In this document: positions 4,320 to 58,868 of the stretch, one piece after another
Layout of the letters: every line of letters begins with the position of its first letter
How positions within the stretch are numbered: position 1 is the stretch's first letter
From: Holophagaceae bacterium
GTDB lineage: Bacteria > Acidobacteriota > Holophagae > Holophagales > Holophagaceae
DNA length: 64,000 nucleotides
Reading direction: 5' to 3'
Assembly: GCA_035255465.1 (NCBI GenBank)
Contig: DATEZP010000060.1
Span: 5,159 to 69,158 of the forward strand
The notes under the pieces: generated by a model
What the model was told of the DNA's origin: nothing
Database searches by the model: none
The model's input: the letters and a program-made list of their open reading frames with translations, nothing else
Position numbers and translations under genes: made by a program

Positions 4320-4883
4320 TCAATCCTCGGTTTTGCCGAACTTTTCGTCCGTCTCCGCAAGCTTCCAGCTGCGCCCGTCCTTGGTGAACCGGGCGTGGCG
4401 CTGCTTGGTGGAGCCCACCTTGGCGTCGGGGTAGCGGAGCTGGAAGGCGGGGAAGAGGGCCGTGGGTTCCTCCAGGCGGATTTGATAGATCACTCGGGTC
4501 TCCCCATCCCGGGCGTCGTCGCGGAGGGCCCGGTCGAAAGCGGCCTTCGCCACGGGCACCCGGAAGGCCTGTCCCGCCGCTTGGATGGTGGTGGGCGCGC
4601 CGGGCAGGAGCTTGGCCGTGAAGGTGACCCGGCCCTTCACGTCCGGAGCGGAAGCCTCGAACCAGTGGCTGGCGCTGAGGGTCTCGGCCAGGGCCTTGAG
4701 GCGCAGCCCTTCGGCGCTGCCCGTGGCGGCCCCGGCCTGTTCGGGCACCTTGAGCATCACCGTAACCGGGTAGAGCTTGCGCAGTTGGGATTCGGCCTCC
4801 GCCTTCCGCAGCTTGGGGCTGCCGCAGGCCAGGGACAGGGCCAGGATCAAGGGGACGCAGAGGGTCTTGGTCGTTGGGCGCAT
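4320..4883 (-). CDS. Lipoprotein, hypothetical
   Basis: MRPTTKTLCVPLILALSLACGSPK has a lipobox LAC. A start at 4883 avoids overlap with the MITE-like element. Confidence 0.6.
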   Translation of the reverse strand: MRPTTKTLCVPLILALSLACGSPKLRKAEAESQLRKLYPVTVMLKVPEQAGAATGSAEGLRLKALAETLSASHWFEASAPDVKGRVTFTAKLLPGAPTTIQAAGQAFRVPVAKAAFDRALRDDARDGETRVIYQIRLEEPTALFPAFQLRYPDAKVGSTKQRHARFTKDGRSWKLAETDEKFGKTED

Positions 4884-4902
4884 GGCGGAAGGATGCCACA
4901 AT

Positions 4903-5173
4903 GGGAGCGTGTCCAAGTAACCGAAGGGAACCGCGTTGAATCCAAAGGGGCTTCAGACAAGGAGGGCTGCGCAGGGCGATGCGGGTTCATCGTTCAAGCA
5001 GCCCGACGCCGGATCAAGCCCCTTTGGGTTCAACCCTTCGGGCTGGAGCGCCAGCCGTCGCGCCCCGGCGTTACCCTCACTCCGTGGTGAACCCGCACCA
5101 CCTTCGTTCGGTTGCCTTGGGGCACTCGGCTGGCGTTCCAGCGCGGTCCCTTCGGTTACTTGGACACGCTCCC
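4903..5173. mobile_element. MITE-like element, copy A (271 bp, perfect 26-bp terminal inverted repeats GGGAGCGTGTCCAAGTAACCGAAGGG, internal nested hairpin)
   Basis: Left end 4903..4928 and the reverse complement of 5148..5173 are identical. Internal inverted repeat TTGAATCCAAAGGGGCTT / AAGCCCCTTTGGGTTCAA. Second copy at 50299..50543. Confidence 0.6.
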
Positions 5174-5177
5174 AGTG

Positions 5178-6008
5178 ATGGTCGAATTCCTGGATCTGGA
5201 GTCCCGCCTGATGAAGGCCACCCGCGACGCCGTGGGCGAGGCGCACGCCTATGTCTGCTTCTCAGGGGGCATCGACAGCACCCTTGTCCTGGCCGCCTGT
5301 CTGAAGGCCGGATTGCCCACCACCGCCGTGCTCGCCGTGGGCCCCAGCCTCGCCCGTAGCGAACGGGCCGACGCCCATGCCCTGGCCGGGCACCTGGGGG
5401 TGGAAGTCATCGAACTGGAGGCCGGGGAAGCTGAGGTGGCGGGCTACCGCGCCAACCAGGGCGACCGCTGCTACTTCTGCAAATCCAGCCTCTACGGGGT
5501 GACGGAAGCCCTGGCCGCCAAACACGGCCTCTCCGGCGTTCTGCTCAATGGCACCCAGGTGGAGGACCTCGGTGACCACCGCCCCGGCCTCAAGGCTGCT
5601 CAGGAACACGCCGTGAAGAGCCCCCTCGTGGAGGCCGCCTTCCGCAAGGCCGACATCCGCACCTTGGCCCACGCCTGGGGCCTGCCCAACGCCGACAAGG
5701 AGGCTTCGCCCTGCCTGGCCAGCCGCTTCCCCGTGGGCACCGAAGTCACCCCCGAGCGGTTGAAGCAGGTTGAGACCATGGAGGAATTCCTCCGCGCCAA
5801 GGGCCTCTGGCCCGCCCGCGCCCGCTGGCACGACTCCGTGGTGCGTCTGGAATTGGCGCCTGATTCCATGGTGCTGGCCCTGCAGGAGCCCCTGCGCTCC
5901 GAGATTGAGCGTGCCGCTTGGCGCGCCGGCTTCCGTTTCGCCGCCGTGGACCTGGGCGGCATCCAGAGCGGCAGCCTCTCCAAGGCCCTGAACGAGGTGA
6001 GCGCTTGA
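5178..6008 (+). CDS. larE: LarE, PP-loop ATP-dependent sulfur transferase (pyridinium-3,5-biscarboxylic acid mononucleotide sulfurtransferase)
   Basis: VCFSGGIDSTLVLAAC PP-loop and CYFCK motif. The track start 5112 lies inside the MITE; MVEFLDLE at 5178 is more likely. Confidence 0.8.
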   Translation: MVEFLDLESRLMKATRDAVGEAHAYVCFSGGIDSTLVLAACLKAGLPTTAVLAVGPSLARSERADAHALAGHLGVEVIELEAGEAEVAGYRANQGDRCYFCKSSLYGVTEALAAKHGLSGVLLNGTQVEDLGDHRPGLKAAQEHAVKSPLVEAAFRKADIRTLAHAWGLPNADKEASPCLASRFPVGTEVTPERLKQVETMEEFLRAKGLWPARARWHDSVVRLELAPDSMVLALQEPLRSEIERAAWRAGFRFAAVDLGGIQSGSLSKALNEVSA

Positions 6009-46851: not shown

Positions 46852-47619
46852 ATGATTCCGATCCTTCCCTTCCTCATGGCGGGCGATCCGTCCTTGGAGG
46901 CGCTGCCCCAGCTCCTCTCCGAAGCCCGGGCCCTGGGCCTCGAAGCGCTGGAGCTGGGCCTGCCCCATTCGGATCCCATCGCCGATGGCCCCGTCCTCCA
47001 AGCGGCCGCCCATCGGGCCATCGGGCGCGGCGCCACGCCCCTCCGGGTGCTGGAACTCCTCGCTGGAATTTCAGACAGCCCTGACCTTGTGTTGTTCACC
47101 TATCTGAATCCCCTCCTCCAGATCGGGGCCCAGCGGCTCCTCGAGCTGCTGGCGCCCACACCCGTGAAGAGCCTCCTGATCGTGGATCTGCCCTTCGGGG
47201 AGGAACCCGGATTCGAGGGCCGCCTGCGCGAAGCCGGCTATCCCGTCATCCCGCTGCTGGCCCCCACCACGGATCCCCTTCGGGCGGCGCGGTTGCTGGA
47301 CGAACGCCCCGATCCGGGGCCCACCGCGCCCTTCGCGCAGCGCTTCGCCTATGTGGTGGCCCGGCTCGGTGTCACCGGCGGCGCCAGCGCCATGGATCTG
47401 GGTCCGGTGGAAGCCCGGGTGGCGGGCCTTCGCGCCATCACTTCCCGCCCCCTGGCCGTAGGGTTCGGGCTGTCCGATGCCGGAAGCCTCCAGGCCATCC
47501 GGGAGCTCGGCGCCACGCCCGTCATCGGCAGCGCCCTGGTGGCCGAACTCGCGGCGGGGGGCACCCTTCGCGGCAGCCTCGTGCCACGCCTCGCGCCGGT
47601 TACCGCGGCACGATCCTAG
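46852..47619 (+). CDS. trpA: Tryptophan synthase alpha chain
   Basis: MIPILPFLMAGDPS; LELGLPHSDPIADGPVLQ. Confidence 0.85.
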   Translation: MIPILPFLMAGDPSLEALPQLLSEARALGLEALELGLPHSDPIADGPVLQAAAHRAIGRGATPLRVLELLAGISDSPDLVLFTYLNPLLQIGAQRLLELLAPTPVKSLLIVDLPFGEEPGFEGRLREAGYPVIPLLAPTTDPLRAARLLDERPDPGPTAPFAQRFAYVVARLGVTGGASAMDLGPVEARVAGLRAITSRPLAVGFGLSDAGSLQAIRELGATPVIGSALVAELAAGGTLRGSLVPRLAPVTAARS

Positions 47620-50269
47620 GGAGTTCCACGAAGAAGATGGCGCCGCCCCCCGGCGCATTGAGGTAACCGATGGCTCCGCCCATGCCCTCCACGAGGGCCC
47701 GGCTGATGGAGAGGCCCAGGCCCGTGCCCGGGATCCGGCGCACTTCGGAGCTGTCGGCCTGGGTGAATTTCTCGAAGAGCAGATCGCCGAAGGAATCCGG
47801 CACGCCGGGGCCCTGATCCCGCACCTCGATGCGCCAGGCCGCGTCGGCGGGGTGCAGGGACAGGGTGACGGTGCCGCCCTGGGGGCTGTGCTTCACGGCG
47901 TTGGAGATGAGGTTGTTGAGCACCTGCACCAGGCGCCCGCCATCCACCCGGGCCTGGGCTTCCCCGAGAGGCTGGCCCTGCCGTTCCAGTCTTACCCCCA
48001 GCTTGGTGGCGAATCCTTGGGCCAGTTCCATGGATTTATCGAGCAGCGGGTCGAGGGGATGGAGCTTGAACTCCAACCGCAGCTTGCCGTGCTCCAGCTT
48101 CTCCAGGTCGAGGATGTCATCCACGAGGGTGCCCAGGTGGCGGGCGTTCTGGTGGGCGATGCGCACCAGCTCGCGGGCCTTCTCCGGAAGCGCGCCGCCC
48201 ACGCCGCCTTCCAGCAGCCCGAGGGTGCCCCGGATGGAGGTGAGGGGTGTGCGGAGTTCGTGGCTGACGATGGCGATGAGTTCGTTCTTGATCTTCTCCA
48301 GCTTCCTCCGGTCCCGCAGATCCCGCAGGAAGGCGGTGAAGAGCACCCCACCTTCCACCTCCACGGCGTTGAGGCCCACTTCGAGGGGGATGGGGTCGCC
48401 TGCACAGGGGAAGGCCATGGCCTCCCGTATGGACCCGGAGCCGCCGGTGGTCTTCAGGTGGGACATGAGGCCGGGCACCAGCTCCGAGACGGAGCGCCCC
48501 TTCAGGGCGGCCAGGTTCCAGCCCAACAAGCGCTGGGCGGCTACGTTGGCGCTCTCGATGTGGCCCGAAGGTTCGAGGATCAGGATCGGTTCCACGGCGT
48601 GATCGAGGATCATCCGGGCCCGGGCCTCGACGGTGGCGAGGGCGCGACCGCGGTCCTCCGCCAGCACCTTCACCGCGGACATCTGACCGCTGACCAGGAG
48701 CAGCAGCGCCCCCAACATGCCGGTGAAGCCAAGGCCGCCCGCGAGCACGAGGAAGACCTGCCACCCTTGGCTGGTGAGCAGGAAGGCGGCCGTGGGCCGC
48801 GCCTGCAAGGCCAGGCTGGCTCCGTAGATCTCCAGGGGGACTTCCTCCATCCAGGCTCCCTTCACGGGCTCGGCCGCGGTGTGGGCGGCCTCGATCCGCT
48901 GCCCGTCGGAGCGCTTGGCCATGAAGGCGAGGTTCACATCCCAGGCATGGGCCCGATCCGCCGCATCCGAAAGCACCGGGTCCGCGTAGAAGAGCAACGA
49001 GACGAACCCCATGAGCGCTTGGGCCCGCGCAGGCGCGGGGGGGATCTGGTTGCCGGCGTAGACGGGCATGGTGAGGATCATGGCCGGCCGGGGCACCGCG
49101 TCTTGGGCGAGGCGCTCCAGCATCACCAGCTGCGTGAGGCCCGCATCCCGGGAGTGGATCATGAGCGGGCCCTGGAATGGGCGCTGCATGAGATCCAATC
49201 CGAGGGCCGCGCGGTTCGGGGTGATCGGCTGCTTATAGGCCAGGGGCCAGTACTCGGCTCGGGTGCCCGCGCGCTCCGGCGCCTGCTGGGGGCCTATGTC
49301 CCGGATCTCGTAAGCCTCGCCCAGGATTTTGGACATCCGCGCCTCGAAGGCCTTCCGCTCCGCGCCGGACACCCGAGGCACCCAATCCACCGAGTGGAGA
49401 TCGGGATACCGCTGCAGGTAGGGTTCCACGAAGGCCTTGAAGCTGGCGGGCTCGATGGAGGGGAGGGCCTTGAACAGACCGCTCATGGCCTGGAGGAGTT
49501 CCTGGCGGGCTTCCAGGGTGGCGGCGAGCTCGCTTCGGGCCCGCTCGGCCCGGACGCGGAGGTTGCGGTGCAAGATCGCCTCTTCGCTGTGGCTCACCCG
49601 TACGAAGATGAGCACCACCGCGACGAGGCTGAGGCCCAGGGGAAAGCCCACCGTGAGCCGGCGATCCCGCCACAACGGGTCGCTGGATAACACCATCTGC
49701 AGGGCGGGGACGAAGATCACCACGCCGAGGGCGTCTCCCACCCACCAGGTCCACCAGGCGTAGGGAACCCCTTGGGCGGGGAGCACGTCCAGGGCCCACA
49801 GGGCTCCGGTGGCCGCGGTGGAGGCGAAGAGGCAGCCCACGACGCCGCCGAAGCCGAGCACCGCCGTGAGATCCCGGGGGGTGGTCATGCGCAGGGGCTC
49901 GGGCGAGACGCGCCGCACCATGTGCGCGCCCAGCAGGGCCTGGAGGGTCGAAGCCGTGGCCACCATCACCGCGATGGCATGCATCTGCCAGCCGTGCCCC
50001 AAGGGCCCGTTCCAGGAGATGGAGAGATTCATCAGGTAGGAGCCGAGCAGGATCCCGGGAGCGCCACGCCATCCGCGCCGGAGCACCTGGTAGAGGGCCA
50101 GGCCCGCGGGCGGGAAGATGGCCGTGGCGTAGCCCGGTGGGATGGCCAAGAGCAGGCCGAGTTTCCCCAGCGCCACGTAGGCCAGTGCGACGCCACCGAT
50201 CTCCAGGAGGAGGCTTCGGGCGGAGGTGGCCTCGGCACGGGGATCGGGCATGCCCGATTCATCGGCCAT
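47600..50269 (-). CDS. Sensor histidine kinase (MASE1 membrane domain, CHASE-like periplasmic domain, PAS, HisKA, HATPase_c)
   Basis: H-box IAIVSHELRTPLTSI; N/G boxes LISNAVKHSPQGG, GTGLGLSI. Start MADESGMPD at 50269 (alternative 50251). Confidence 0.85.
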   Translation of the reverse strand: MADESGMPDPRAEATSARSLLLEIGGVALAYVALGKLGLLLAIPPGYATAIFPPAGLALYQVLRRGWRGAPGILLGSYLMNLSISWNGPLGHGWQMHAIAVMVATASTLQALLGAHMVRRVSPEPLRMTTPRDLTAVLGFGGVVGCLFASTAATGALWALDVLPAQGVPYAWWTWWVGDALGVVIFVPALQMVLSSDPLWRDRRLTVGFPLGLSLVAVVLIFVRVSHSEEAILHRNLRVRAERARSELAATLEARQELLQAMSGLFKALPSIEPASFKAFVEPYLQRYPDLHSVDWVPRVSGAERKAFEARMSKILGEAYEIRDIGPQQAPERAGTRAEYWPLAYKQPITPNRAALGLDLMQRPFQGPLMIHSRDAGLTQLVMLERLAQDAVPRPAMILTMPVYAGNQIPPAPARAQALMGFVSLLFYADPVLSDAADRAHAWDVNLAFMAKRSDGQRIEAAHTAAEPVKGAWMEEVPLEIYGASLALQARPTAAFLLTSQGWQVFLVLAGGLGFTGMLGALLLLVSGQMSAVKVLAEDRGRALATVEARARMILDHAVEPILILEPSGHIESANVAAQRLLGWNLAALKGRSVSELVPGLMSHLKTTGGSGSIREAMAFPCAGDPIPLEVGLNAVEVEGGVLFTAFLRDLRDRRKLEKIKNELIAIVSHELRTPLTSIRGTLGLLEGGVGGALPEKARELVRIAHQNARHLGTLVDDILDLEKLEHGKLRLEFKLHPLDPLLDKSMELAQGFATKLGVRLERQGQPLGEAQARVDGGRLVQVLNNLISNAVKHSPQGGTVTLSLHPADAAWRIEVRDQGPGVPDSFGDLLFEKFTQADSSEVRRIPGTGLGLSISRALVEGMGGAIGYLNAPGGGAIFFVELPRIVPR

Positions 50270-50298: not shown

Positions 50299-50543
50299 CT
50301 AGGAGCGTGTCCAAGTAACCGGTGGGGCTGCCGCCCCAGCCCCCTCTCCCTATCACAGGCCCCACTGGGGCCTGTTCCCACGAAGCTGAGCTTCGTGGAG
50401 GGCGGAACCGGTTGAAACCAAAGGGGCCTGATCCGTTGTCGGCGCGCTTGCACGATGACACCGCATCGCGCCGCGCGCGCCTCCTCGACTGAGGCCCGTT
50501 TGGTTTCAACGCGGCTCCCGCCGATTCCTTGGACACGCTCCTA
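50299..50543. mobile_element. MITE-like element, copy B (about 245 bp; 17-bp TIR CTAGGAGCGTGTCCAAG; internal hairpin GTTGAAACCAAAGGGGCC / GGCCCGTTTGGTTTCAAC)
   Basis: Terminal inverted repeats and inner hairpin match copy A (4903..5173); the remaining interior diverges. Confidence 0.55.
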
Positions 50544-50561
50544 GGGGAAGGGATCCGTCCC

Positions 50562-53500
50562 CTAGATCGGGCGCCTGGATTCCCGCTCCAGATTGGGATT
50601 CAGCGCGCGGGCCTCCCGCAGCACCGCGGCGGCTTCGGCGGCTTTCCCGAGGCCCTCCAGGAGGCGCCCTTGCCAGAGGGCCAGTTCCGCGCTCCGGGGA
50701 TTCGCCTGGCGGGCCTTCTGCAGGGCCGGCACCAGCGCCGGGAGCCCCTGCTTCCGGGCGAGGGCGAGGCGGACGCGCAAGAGGAGGGCCCCCTCGGAAT
50801 CGGGGATGGCCTTGATCGCCACCTCCGCCCCGGGCCAATCGCCCTTCAGGATGGCGCACAGGGCCTGGTGGTTCAGGGCCTCCCGGCTGCGGGGATTGAC
50901 GGCCAGGGCCTTCTCCACGTGCTGGCCGCCGGTGGCCAGATCGGCGGCCCGACTGGCCGGCGTCCACTCGGCCCGGAGCAGGTAGGCCTCCGCCAGCCAT
51001 TGATGGGTGAGGAAGGAATTGGGGTTCATGGCCAACGCCTCCTGATAGGCGGCGATGGACCGATCCAGGTAAGGCTTGGGATCTCCGCCTTGCCACCGTT
51101 CGTACAGCGCCGCCACTTTCAAGCTGCCGCCTTCGCTGGCCGGATGCCCCACCCAGGGTCGGAGGCTCATGGCCTCCTTGAAGCAGCGGGTGGCTTCCTC
51201 CACCAGGGGCCGGGGATCGCCGCCGTGATGCAGGGCCCATTCGGCCTGGGCCGAGAGGCAGTTGCCTAGGTTGTTGAGGAGGAAATCCTTGATCTGGGGC
51301 CGGACGAGCGCACCTCGCAGCCCTGCCACGGCCCGGGCCAGGGTGGGCGTGGGATCCTGGCCCTGATCGGCCTCCCAGCTGGCCCGGGTGCGCAGCAGCG
51401 TGCCGAGGTTGTTCCAGAGCTCGTTGTCCTCCGGCTGGAGCTTGAGCCCCATTTCCGCGGCTTCGGCGGCGGCCTGCAGGGGCAGGCTGGGATCCTGGCC
51501 CAACCGGAGCAGGTGCATGCCCCAGAGGCGGAAGAGGGCCGAGCGTGCGCTCCAGGCCCGGGGGCTGCCGGAGTCCACCGCGATGGACCGGTCCGACGCG
51601 GCCAGGGCCTGGTCGAAGGCGGGTTTGGCATCCCGGGCCAGGTCGATGGCGATGGCCAGCTGCAGTTGGCGGGACTGGGCCTGGGAAAGGTGGATGCGGG
51701 GATTGCTGCGCTGCAGGTTCTCGGCGCGGGCCAGGGCCTCCAGGGCGCGGGTGGCCGCGGCCTCGGCCTCCCCGTACTGACCTTTGGCCATGGCGGCTCC
51801 GGCATCGGCGCGGTCCAGCTCCGCCTGGAGCAGCCACCCTTCGGGATTCCAGGCCTGTTGGGTCTGCAGTTTGAGCAGGAACTCCCGGGCCTCCCCGGGG
51901 CGCCCGGCCACCGAAGCGAGGAGGGCCTTGATCTGGGGGCTGTCCGGATCCTGGGCTTGACGCAGGAAGTCCAGCGCCGGCTGGCGCAGCTCCTGTTCGA
52001 GTTCCTTTTGCCGGTCCTCCCGGGCCTTACCGCGCAGGCCCTCCAGGGATTGCTGGTAGAGGTGGGCGAGGGTGGTGCCCAGCACGGAAGCCGTTTCGGG
52101 ATCGCGCTGGCGCCCCTCCTTCCAGGCCTTCAGCAACTCCACCCGGGCCTCATCCCAGAGGCCGAGGGCCGCGTAGCCCCGGCCCAGCGCCACGCGGGCG
52201 GGACCCTGCACCCAGGCGGACCGGCCATTCAACTTCGCGCGCAACTGATCCAGATCCTGGCGCACCCGTGCGAGGGCGGGGCGCACGTCGTGCACGGGCA
52301 GGGCCAGCTCCCGGTTCACTTCCAGTTCCAGCCGGTCCACGGCCTGGGTGGTGGATTGAGCGAGGCTGCCTTGGAGCCGCGTCTGGCGCCAATTCCAGAG
52401 GGAGGTGGCCAACAGCACCACGGCGAGCGAGGCGCCAAGGGTGAGGAGCAGGCGGGGGCCTTGCTTCCGGGCCCGCTTGCGCAGCCGGTATCCCCAGCTG
52501 GCGGGGTGGGCGTGGATGGGATCCCCTTCGAGGAAGCGGCGCAGATCCTCGCCGAAGGCCTGGGCGGTGGGATAGCGTCGCGCCGGATCCTTGTCCATGG
52601 CCTTGAGGATCACGACTTCCAGATCCAGTGGGAGATCGGCCCGCAGGGAGCGCGGCGAGGGCGGATCCTCCTCCTGCACGCGACGCAGCAGTTCCCAGGT
52701 GGTGGTGGCTTCGAAGGGCAGCTGACCGGTGAGGGCGGTGTAGAGCGTGGCGCCCAGGCCGTAGACATCGCCCCGGGGATCGGGCTCTTCCCCGCGAAGC
52801 ACCTCCGGCGCGGAGAAGGCGGGTGTGCCAATGAGGATGCCGGGCAGGGTGGCTTCCGTGGATTCCATGTTGCGGGCCAATCCGAAGTCCACCAGGAAGG
52901 GGTGCCAGGGGCCCTCGCCCTTCCGCTCCAGCAACACGTTGCCGGGCTTGATATCCCGGTGGAGGATGCCGCTGCGATGGCAGGCTTCGAGGGCCTCGGC
53001 CACCTGCACCGTGAGCAGCACCGTCTCCCGCAGGCCCAGCTCCGATCGGGCCTGGGCCAGGGTGGGCCCATCGATGTACTGGAGCACCAGGTGGGGGCGT
53101 TCCTCGTCCTGGATCACTTCGAAGACGCGCCCCACGTAGGGATGGTTCAACTGGGCCTGGGAGCGGGCCTCCCGGAGGAACCGGTTCCAGGTTTCGGGAT
53201 CCAGGTGCTTGAGGAACTTCAAGGCCACCGTGCGTTCCAGCCGTCGGTCGTAGGCTTTGAAGACGATGCCCATGCCGCCTTCCCCCAATTTGGAGATGGG
53301 CTCGAAGCGATCCGTCAACCGCTCCGGAAAGGAGGCCAGATCATCGGGCGCCGAGATGGGGGTGTGGTCGAGGTGGAATTCCTGCAGGAGTTCACCCAGA
53401 GGGCCCGACGCGAAGAGTCCTTGGGCCCGGAGTACCTCGAAGCGCATGAGCCAATCGCCCTCGGAGAGCGTAGGCGAATCCTGGGGGCGCGGCCCGAAGA

Positions 53501-53582
53501 TCGCGTCGAAGTTGAGCAGGCCCCGATCCATGGCCGCCCGGAGGAACCTCAGACGTTGGAGGGAAGGAGTGGACTGGGGCAC
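50562..53582 (-). CDS. Serine/threonine protein kinase with a TM segment and long C-terminal TPR-repeat region
   Basis: GEGGMGIVFKAYD, ALKFLK, HRDIKPGNVLL, DFGLAR, GTPAFSAPE; then a TM helix and TPR repeats. Confidence 0.85.
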   Translation of the reverse strand: MPQSTPSLQRLRFLRAAMDRGLLNFDAIFGPRPQDSPTLSEGDWLMRFEVLRAQGLFASGPLGELLQEFHLDHTPISAPDDLASFPERLTDRFEPISKLGEGGMGIVFKAYDRRLERTVALKFLKHLDPETWNRFLREARSQAQLNHPYVGRVFEVIQDEERPHLVLQYIDGPTLAQARSELGLRETVLLTVQVAEALEACHRSGILHRDIKPGNVLLERKGEGPWHPFLVDFGLARNMESTEATLPGILIGTPAFSAPEVLRGEEPDPRGDVYGLGATLYTALTGQLPFEATTTWELLRRVQEEDPPSPRSLRADLPLDLEVVILKAMDKDPARRYPTAQAFGEDLRRFLEGDPIHAHPASWGYRLRKRARKQGPRLLLTLGASLAVVLLATSLWNWRQTRLQGSLAQSTTQAVDRLELEVNRELALPVHDVRPALARVRQDLDQLRAKLNGRSAWVQGPARVALGRGYAALGLWDEARVELLKAWKEGRQRDPETASVLGTTLAHLYQQSLEGLRGKAREDRQKELEQELRQPALDFLRQAQDPDSPQIKALLASVAGRPGEAREFLLKLQTQQAWNPEGWLLQAELDRADAGAAMAKGQYGEAEAAATRALEALARAENLQRSNPRIHLSQAQSRQLQLAIAIDLARDAKPAFDQALAASDRSIAVDSGSPRAWSARSALFRLWGMHLLRLGQDPSLPLQAAAEAAEMGLKLQPEDNELWNNLGTLLRTRASWEADQGQDPTPTLARAVAGLRGALVRPQIKDFLLNNLGNCLSAQAEWALHHGGDPRPLVEEATRCFKEAMSLRPWVGHPASEGGSLKVAALYERWQGGDPKPYLDRSIAAYQEALAMNPNSFLTHQWLAEAYLLRAEWTPASRAADLATGGQHVEKALAVNPRSREALNHQALCAILKGDWPGAEVAIKAIPDSEGALLLRVRLALARKQGLPALVPALQKARQANPRSAELALWQGRLLEGLGKAAEAAAVLREARALNPNLERESRRPI

Positions 53583-58793: not shown

Positions 58794-58868
58794 TGGGGAG
58801 TCGCCAAGTGGTAAGGCAGCAGGTTTTGATCCTGCCTATCGAGGGTTCGAATCCTTCCTCCCCAACCA
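58794..58868 (+). tRNA. tRNA-Gln (anticodon TTG), CCA encoded
   Basis: Acceptor TGGGGAG/CTCCCCA; anticodon arm GCAGG-ttTTGat-CCTGC; T-loop TTCGAAT; 3' ACCA. Confidence 0.8.

Follow-up and report, generated by a model that had tools for sequence, protein, structure and literature searches.

A MITE family with IS1182-type ends in Holophagaceae, one member of which occupies the space between larE and a divergent lipoprotein gene

Among the described elements close to the one analyzed here are the IS1182-derived MITEs (ISMac2) of Methanosarcina acetivorans, which are 160-169 bp long, with 25-26-nt inverted repeats and 4-bp direct repeats (PMC3852290). Two insertion sequences (ISs) of the IS1182 family provide further points of reference: ISPse1 has 16/16 inverted repeats and generates a 4-bp duplication (PMC3281130); IS1272, an element of staphylococci, prefers palindromic targets and replaces the target stem-loop, leaving no duplication (PMC5678879). 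A search of the literature yielded no description of the present family for Geothrix, Holophagaceae or Acidobacteria. Transposons of another superfamily, IS630/Tc1-mariner, insert at CTAG with duplication of TA, and the Correia elements of Neisseria are MITEs of this IS630 type: they duplicate TA at a TA-containing target, lie in intergenic DNA near genes and form a long hairpin when transcribed.

The MITE that is the subject of this analysis is present twice in the window (that is, in the whole 64-kb stretch of Holophagaceae DNA that was analyzed). Likened by description, it resembles the ISMac2 MITEs in being short and non-autonomous and in being assigned to an IS1182 partner through its inverted repeats; they differ from it in their archaeal host, in their 4-bp direct repeat and in that no three-helix interior is described for them. 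With the Correia elements, as these are generally described, it shares a TA-containing target, at which a duplication of TA is proposed, an intergenic placement close to genes and the prospect of a long hairpin if it is transcribed; by the same description it is larger, has IS1182-type ends, and forms a three-way junction in place of the single Correia hairpin. A MITE with IS1182-type ends is a well-known kind of element rather than a new kind of system. Only two points about it are unusual: its three-helix interior is strongly compensated, and one copy entered a divergent promoter region of only 25 bp.

Copy 1 occupies the gap between two divergent start codons, as the earlier note on this DNA had observed. 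On one side a putative lipoprotein gene of 187 aa (4320-4883, minus strand; its ortholog is 186-187 aa long in loci L048-L050, from three relatives) starts at an ATG at 4883; on the other, larE (5178-6008, plus strand) starts at an ATG at 5178 and encodes an ATP-dependent sacrificial sulfur transferase of 276 aa, whose homologues, 275-277 aa long and covering it at 100%, carry the NCBI name LarE. The core of the element, GGAGCG...CGCTCC, extends over 269 nt (4904-5172, plus strand), with TG to its left (4902-4903) and CA to its right (5173-5174). The perfect 26-bp terminal inverted repeat that first drew attention to this unit is there: GGGAGCGTGTCCAAGTAACCGAAGGG at 4903-4928 and the stretch 5148-5173 are exact reverse complements (0 matches are expected from shuffles). 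It grows to 31 nt at 97% complementarity, with a left arm at 4899-4929 and a right arm at 5147-5177 that ends one base before the larE ATG.

Inside this closing stem, the predicted fold (-193.6 kcal/mol, z-score -16.6) has two long arms. The second helix (4935-5034, plus strand) contains the inner hairpin of the earlier note, the arms of which (4935-4953 with 5016-5034) measure 19 nt rather than 18 bp and include one G.T position; an apical hairpin tops it, and it corresponds to helices 3-5 of the family alignment, in which compensatory changes are found. The third helix (5039-5145, plus strand; alignment helices 7-9) was absent from that note's list and is built in the same manner, from 19-nt arms (5039-5057 with 5127-5145) and an apical stem. 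The note credits the unit with no coding capacity; two ORFs, of 80 and 97 aa, overlap it, and nothing in it is transposase-like.

A second copy, about 45 kb away and with the same TIR core and inner hairpin, had also been noticed. It is found at 50299-50544 and runs the other way: what aligns with the plus strand of copy 1 is its minus strand. Within it, a 240-nt core (50302-50541, minus strand) lies between two CTAGs (50299-50302 and 50541-50544); the arms of the copy are at 50299-50326 and 50517-50544, and its inner hairpin pairs 50411-50429 with 50492-50510. The whole third arm has been replaced by a sequence different from that of copy 1; the folding z-score is -11.6. Copy 2 lies 18 nt past the stop codon of a gene for a Ser/Thr protein kinase with TPR repeats (50562-53582, minus strand) and 48 nt before the conserved ATG (50251) of a sensor histidine kinase gene (47600-50251, minus strand; the start is set at this ATG, and an ATG further upstream meets an in-frame stop in the related locus L072). 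It is in sense orientation within an apparent operon. A small palindrome, CTAGGGGAAGG/CCGTCCCCTAG, adjoins it (50541-50565) with CTAG at both feet: the left one is the flank of copy 2, the right one provides the stop codon of the kinase gene.

Two copies suggested a dispersed repeat; there are many more. An exact-pattern search of species-representative genomes with a 20-nt end returned 47 loci, of which 46, in Holophagaceae, Geothrix or acidobacterial bins, are genuine (L023, the 47th, is a chance match inside an Acidimicrobiia coding sequence). Some bins hold up to 7 or more copies, and a scan of metagenomes added 21 further contigs, many of them broken at the repeat; so many matches lie at contig ends that contig breaks in Holophagaceae bins are explained. 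One copy, L042, is in a cultured Geothrix, G. limicola Red804. All copies have conserved ends over the outer 14-18 nt, and in more than 20 copies, from other genomes, the core is exactly 268-270 nt long (canonically 269 nt, as in copy 1). Two subfamilies can be told apart: the type of the window (A), which is also found in SMAG_U8513 and in one other bin, and a majority type (B). They have the three-helix layout in common and differ at many paired positions. No match to the MITE-specific end pattern was found in the IMG/VR collection of viral contigs; a looser IS1182-type end pattern, CTAGGAGCSYGTCCRAGTAA, matches five contigs of that collection (L078-L082).

The flanks of these loci are mutually unrelated, with L017/L041 as the sole exception. 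These two bins, from related samples, share an insertion (L017:2079-2347 and L041:3579-3847): one 250-nt flank is 100% identical, and on the other side the sequences diverge about 4 nt beyond the element. Copies that recombined, or sequences joined at the repeat during assembly, could account for identity on one side only. Other members of the family are shortened or enlarged. Mini-forms of 56-73 nt consist of the closing stem only (L018:6829-6884, L032:3888-3944 and L031:341-413); solo ends are found in L012, L016 and L040, and the 20-nt solo end of L040 (7190-7218) has CTAG on both sides. The mini-forms and the L040 solo end may be deletion products or excision footprints. Longer members carry nested inserts, among them inserts of 42 nt at several positions. 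Mini-forms, solo ends and nested-insert forms are derivatives typical of a decaying transposon family.

In related loci the two sites of the window lack the element: there are 3 such loci for site 1 and 5 for site 2. At site 1, the lipoprotein/larE spacer of L048, L049 and L050 (LarE 93, 88 and 87% identical) is 25 bp long and reads CAT-ggcggaaggatgccaca-CTAG/CTTG/CTGG-nnnn-ATG, CTAG being the version of the closest relative. In a BLAST alignment 276 nt of the window face only 7 nt of L048. The larE site has thus gained a net 269 nt; TA duplication predicts 271 nt, so that a further 2-nt change must be assumed there. Copy 1 is a recent arrival in this 25-bp gap between divergent genes. At site 2, the spacers of L072-L076 (kinase 96 to 79% identical) are 46-84 nt long and lack the element. 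In L072, the closest of these (96%), the 21 nt following the kinase stop can be matched one for one to the 21 nt of the window that end in CTAG, and the sequence resumes at once past the element (ATCGGC vs ATCAGC). Since the flanks align without loss, one 4-mer is the ancestral target and the other is a duplication. Direct evidence of mobility comes from SMAG_U8513, in which both sites are empty although other places in it bear at least 4 full subfamily-A copies. (The orthologous regions of other subfamily-A insertions lie outside what the window covers.)

What is the target? Over 39 oriented copies, the left flank is C in 35, T in 35 and A in 33, and the right flank is T in 32, A in 35 and G in 35, so that nearly all copies are flanked as C-TA-core-TA-G. 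The terminal G and C of the core are invariant and the outer flank bases vary independently of each other: L007 reads A-TA...TA-A, and L013 and L046 read C-TA...TA-A. This independence from the invariant core ends favors duplication of TA over duplication of a 4-bp CTAG, and a TA duplication inside a preferred cTAg appears to fit the flanks better than a CTAG duplication would. Because the target is palindromic, TA cannot be told apart cleanly from CTAG or from a longer inverted repeat, and a TA duplication is accordingly a proposal. As to the target-site duplications that had been suggested as a check on mobility, the picture is mixed: cTA/TAg flanks are present in 32-35 of the 39 copies and an extra 4-mer at the kinase site; copy 1 departs from the rule, with TG...CA (4902-4903/5173-5174) where TA is found in 33-35 of the 39 copies on the left and in the majority on the right, and where the closest empty site has CTAG. 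These flanks are base-paired and form no direct repeat. The same TG...CA is found at L005:3143-3144/3414-3415, an independent insertion, also of subfamily A, a hint that these bases are carried along by the element or get corrected from one arm to the other.

A cTAg target with an apparent TA duplication is the classic signature of IS630, and one may ask whether an IS630/Tc1-mariner-type transposase moves this MITE. The ends speak for a different partner: the only transposase-bearing elements found with such ends belong to the IS1182 family, the same CTAG flanks and related ends recur in the IS1182-like ISMno38, and no IS630-type gene was seen next to any end. An IS630-type partner is therefore very improbable.

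Two transposase-bearing elements with such ends were found, both in metagenome contigs; an IS with matching TIRs had been proposed as a thing to look for. The first (L052:263-1761), an element of about 1.5 kb bounded by CTAG, has GGAGCGTGTCCAAGTA at both ends. The second (L051:2127-3640), likewise bounded by CTAG and about 1.5 kb long, matches the MITE for 20 nt at its right end; at the left, where it has GGAGTCCGTCCGAGTAAT, 4 of 18 positions are different. The two transposases (429-444 aa) score 354 and 353 bits on the NCBIfam model NF033551 (IS1182 family; cutoff 270) and also match Pfam DUF772 and DDE domains. The two proteins are only 45% identical, from which it follows that the end sequence is old within a large clade. 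ISMno38 of Methylobacterium nodulans, whose protein is 55% identical to that of L052, has ends of the form CTAG-GGAGCCCGTCCGAGTAA, with a 20-nt inverted repeat, CTAGGAGCCCGTCCGAGTAA, that is perfect. Over its outer 16-20 nt (from 4904 in copy 1) the MITE is identical to both ends of L052 and to the right end of L051, and it agrees with ISMno38 at 13 of 17 positions; CTAG-flanked GGAGC..GTCC.AGTAA describes the end class that the partners have in common. The MITE differs from all three in lacking a transposase, in its length (269 nt vs about 1.5 kb) and in its unrelated interior, and none of the three turned up in a Holophagaceae genome here. With only the terminal ~20 nt in common, it is no simple deletion derivative of the L052 or L051 element.

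The L052 transposase has about 8000 relatives in many phyla; none of the best 120 of these carries a Holophagaceae label, and tblastn with an IS1182 transposase gave no match in the 64-kb window or in any Holophagaceae MITE locus. The partner is accordingly shown by identity of the ends only and not by residence in the same host. (Other candidates for a parent IS came to nothing: differences of about 1.1-1.2 kb between L017 and L018 and between L022 and L036 turned out to be ordinary genes, and the solo ends of L012, L016 and L040 are truncated remnants with no parent IS adjoining.) IS1272 has the same family of transposase, and there is some likeness in the choice of sites: the L052 IS sits in the center of a palindrome, and copy 2 at the foot of a small one. 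IS1272, however, replaces its target without duplication, whereas the kinase site in the window has flanks without loss and the 4-mer twice. The L052 element (L052:230-1800) sits exactly on the CTAG in the middle of a near-perfect palindrome, each arm of which is about 34 nt long (gcgcggcatcgc...ggcggtccg / CTAG), a position that recalls the palindrome targeting reported for IS1272 (PMC5678879).

Taken for a mobile element by the earlier note, the unit has gained support as such from its copies, flanks, empty sites and matching ISs; that note had named just two copies, no target-site duplications and no related IS as telling against mobility, whereas many copies, an apparent duplication and ISs with matching ends were found. 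Very probably, then, it belongs to a non-coding, non-autonomous MITE family of Holophagaceae and Geothrix that depends on an IS1182-type transposase acting in trans and that has cTAg as its target. The course of events can be pictured as follows. The outer 16-20 bp would be the ends at which an IS1182-family DDE transposase, supplied in trans, binds and cleaves; this transposase, presumably active in these very hosts, would place the 269-bp core into cTAg and duplicate the central TA. One copy would have entered the 25-bp lipoprotein/larE spacer in this way, and another the spacer between the Ser/Thr kinase and histidine kinase genes. The three helices of the interior stay complementary through paired substitutions on both strands, as suits a DNA palindrome or a structure that is of use on either transcribed strand.

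The arrival of copy 1 separated two start codons that had been very close together. The earlier note proposed that the promoters of larE and of the lipoprotein gene must lie inside the element or have been displaced by it. With an ancestral spacer of only 25 bp, however, a long promoter region never existed; the conserved 17-19 nt on the lipoprotein side, moreover, are intact. The remnant of that spacer (4884-4902) is identical to the three relatives at 4884-4900 and has A at 4901 where they have C, and the element was inserted in the sole variable 8 nt of the spacer, 5 nt upstream of the larE start. A two-hexamer σ70 scan found no promoter. The remnant contains TGcCACAAT (4894-4902, plus strand; TGcCACACT in the relatives) and TGgCATCCT (4898-4890, minus strand), and in the empty-site spacers (L048:2476-2500, L049:1530-1554 and L050:2476-2500) each motif ends 7 nt before its ATG. 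This arrangement suggests two overlapping extended -10 promoters for leaderless mRNAs. On this reading, which goes by motif position, the lipoprotein promoter would be untouched by copy 1, and the larE promoter, rather than lying inside the element, would now fire into it, with a start near 4909. Transcription of larE would then pass through the whole element.

Other copies stand at the ends of genes. Genes around the element were called with a home-made, codon-usage gene caller trained on the loci themselves. At twenty element sides the border falls exactly on the TAG stop of the gene next to it, and about half of the copies abut such a stop; this preference is accounted for by a cTAg target in a genome of 67% G+C. 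(Copies at TAG stops include those of L007, L010, L011, L013, L020, L027, L028, L029, L031, L036, L037, L045, L046 and L061; in L029 and L031 the element lies between two convergent genes, one ending at each border.) Gene 3' ends face the 5' end of the element more often than its 3' end (22 vs 10, or 17 vs 5 outside convergent pairs), a modest bias that comes from crude gene calls and possibly includes related copies.

The three-helix interior is well conserved. In an alignment of 21 full copies, 98.2% of the cells are in standard pairs, and 27 of 90 pairs have changed on both sides; sliding the partners by 1-3 columns leaves no more than 8 such pairs. Could the unit be the gene of a structured, non-coding RNA, or else a leader (a conserved 5'-UTR, or one like a riboswitch), transcribed towards larE and folded into the long closing stem and its two arms? 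Such compensation, the great stability of the predicted fold, the better folding of both copies of the window on the strand that faces the downstream gene, and the modest excess of the sense orientation behind gene 3' ends all point that way. Over the 21 copies, however, neither strand is preferred consistently: the difference in energy between the strands lies on both sides of zero in subfamily B (-11 to +14 kcal/mol), one subfamily-A copy folds better on the opposite strand, and conserved G-U columns number 6 on one strand and 4 on the other. (G-U pairs were considered as a mark of the transcribed strand and dropped when the asymmetry disappeared over the 21 copies.) A fold without strand preference does not support an RNA gene. 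Besides, the element is missing from the same sites in close relatives and is found elsewhere in unrelated contexts, and its ends are those of transposase-encoding ISs. Rfam 15 at the gathering threshold gave no match in the 64-kb window except for one tRNA, and at E<=10 it added only a chance microRNA match (15 bits vs a cutoff of 72). (The tRNA gene, the sole Rfam match of the window, is at 58794-58865, plus strand.) An RNA gene or leader is thus a most unlikely account of the element. Real as the three-helix fold is, it belongs to a DNA palindrome and is open to either strand.

Twenty-seven compensated pairs in three helices are nonetheless more than a passive MITE needs. A co-opted MITE would supply a reason: the fold might be under selection because the transcribed element acts on its neighbors, as a 3'-end stabilizer of mRNA, an RNase III site or a barrier to transcription. 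Correia and ERIC elements, which are processed or stabilize transcripts, provide the analogy. Co-option would make sense of a structure maintained across two subfamilies that differ at many paired positions, of the TAG stops abutted by about half of the copies (20 element sides), and of the sense excess outside convergent pairs. It has to contend with the weakness of that orientation bias (home-made gene caller, possibly related copies), with copy 2, which has exchanged its whole third arm, and with consensus scans of both copies that found no σ70 promoter and no intrinsic terminator; correction of one arm by the other in palindromic DNA, moreover, can preserve complementarity without selection. 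Co-option is on balance unlikely. Its more specific form, a domesticated regulatory module that acts post-transcriptionally (as a 3'-end stabilizer or an RNase III entry site) and favors TAG stops and the sense orientation, is a rather doubtful proposition. Were it true, a leaderless larE mRNA would have become an mRNA with a structured leader of about 270 nt.

With the MITE as the preferred reading, there remain several uses for these copies. The family is active, or was so recently, in a little-studied acidobacterial lineage, and is linked to a broad IS1182 clade with CTAG-flanked ends; its insertions can serve as markers for strain typing; and the larE site is a natural experiment in which divergent genes spaced by 25 bp have been moved 270 bp apart by a very stable palindrome.

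One more way of moving a palindrome has to be weighed: as single-stranded DNA, in the manner of a REPIN or REP-like element, by a Y1 transposase (RAYT or IS200/IS605-type) for which the hairpins would be the structures recognized. Hairpins conserved and compensated on both strands, and a modest orientation bias, speak for such an element, and the same genomes do contain a different, 42-nt hairpin element of that kind, which inserts into the MITE. The MITE itself is otherwise built: it has true terminal inverted repeats identical to those of ISs with a DDE transposase, a symmetric, palindromic target with duplicated flanks, a length of 269 nt instead of 20-40 or about 100 nt, and, in the window, two copies oppositely oriented within 45 kb. 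Transposition of the MITE by a Y1 enzyme is improbable in the extreme.

The nested mini-element of about 42 nt is unrelated to the MITE and absent from the 64-kb window. It consists of a hairpin, TCTCGGTATCGSC-loop-GSCGATACGCGAGA, and a tail of about 13 nt, and is found at L020:5318, L026:305, L027:2682, L028:4702/4960/5009, L033:3826 and L034:3793, and also at L025:1480, L006:26/75, L012:4509 and L061:1767. No duplication is visible at these sites; the insert always lies directly 3' of YCTT, in an orientation that is fixed relative to it, and looks like a REP or an IS200/IS605-type single-strand element.
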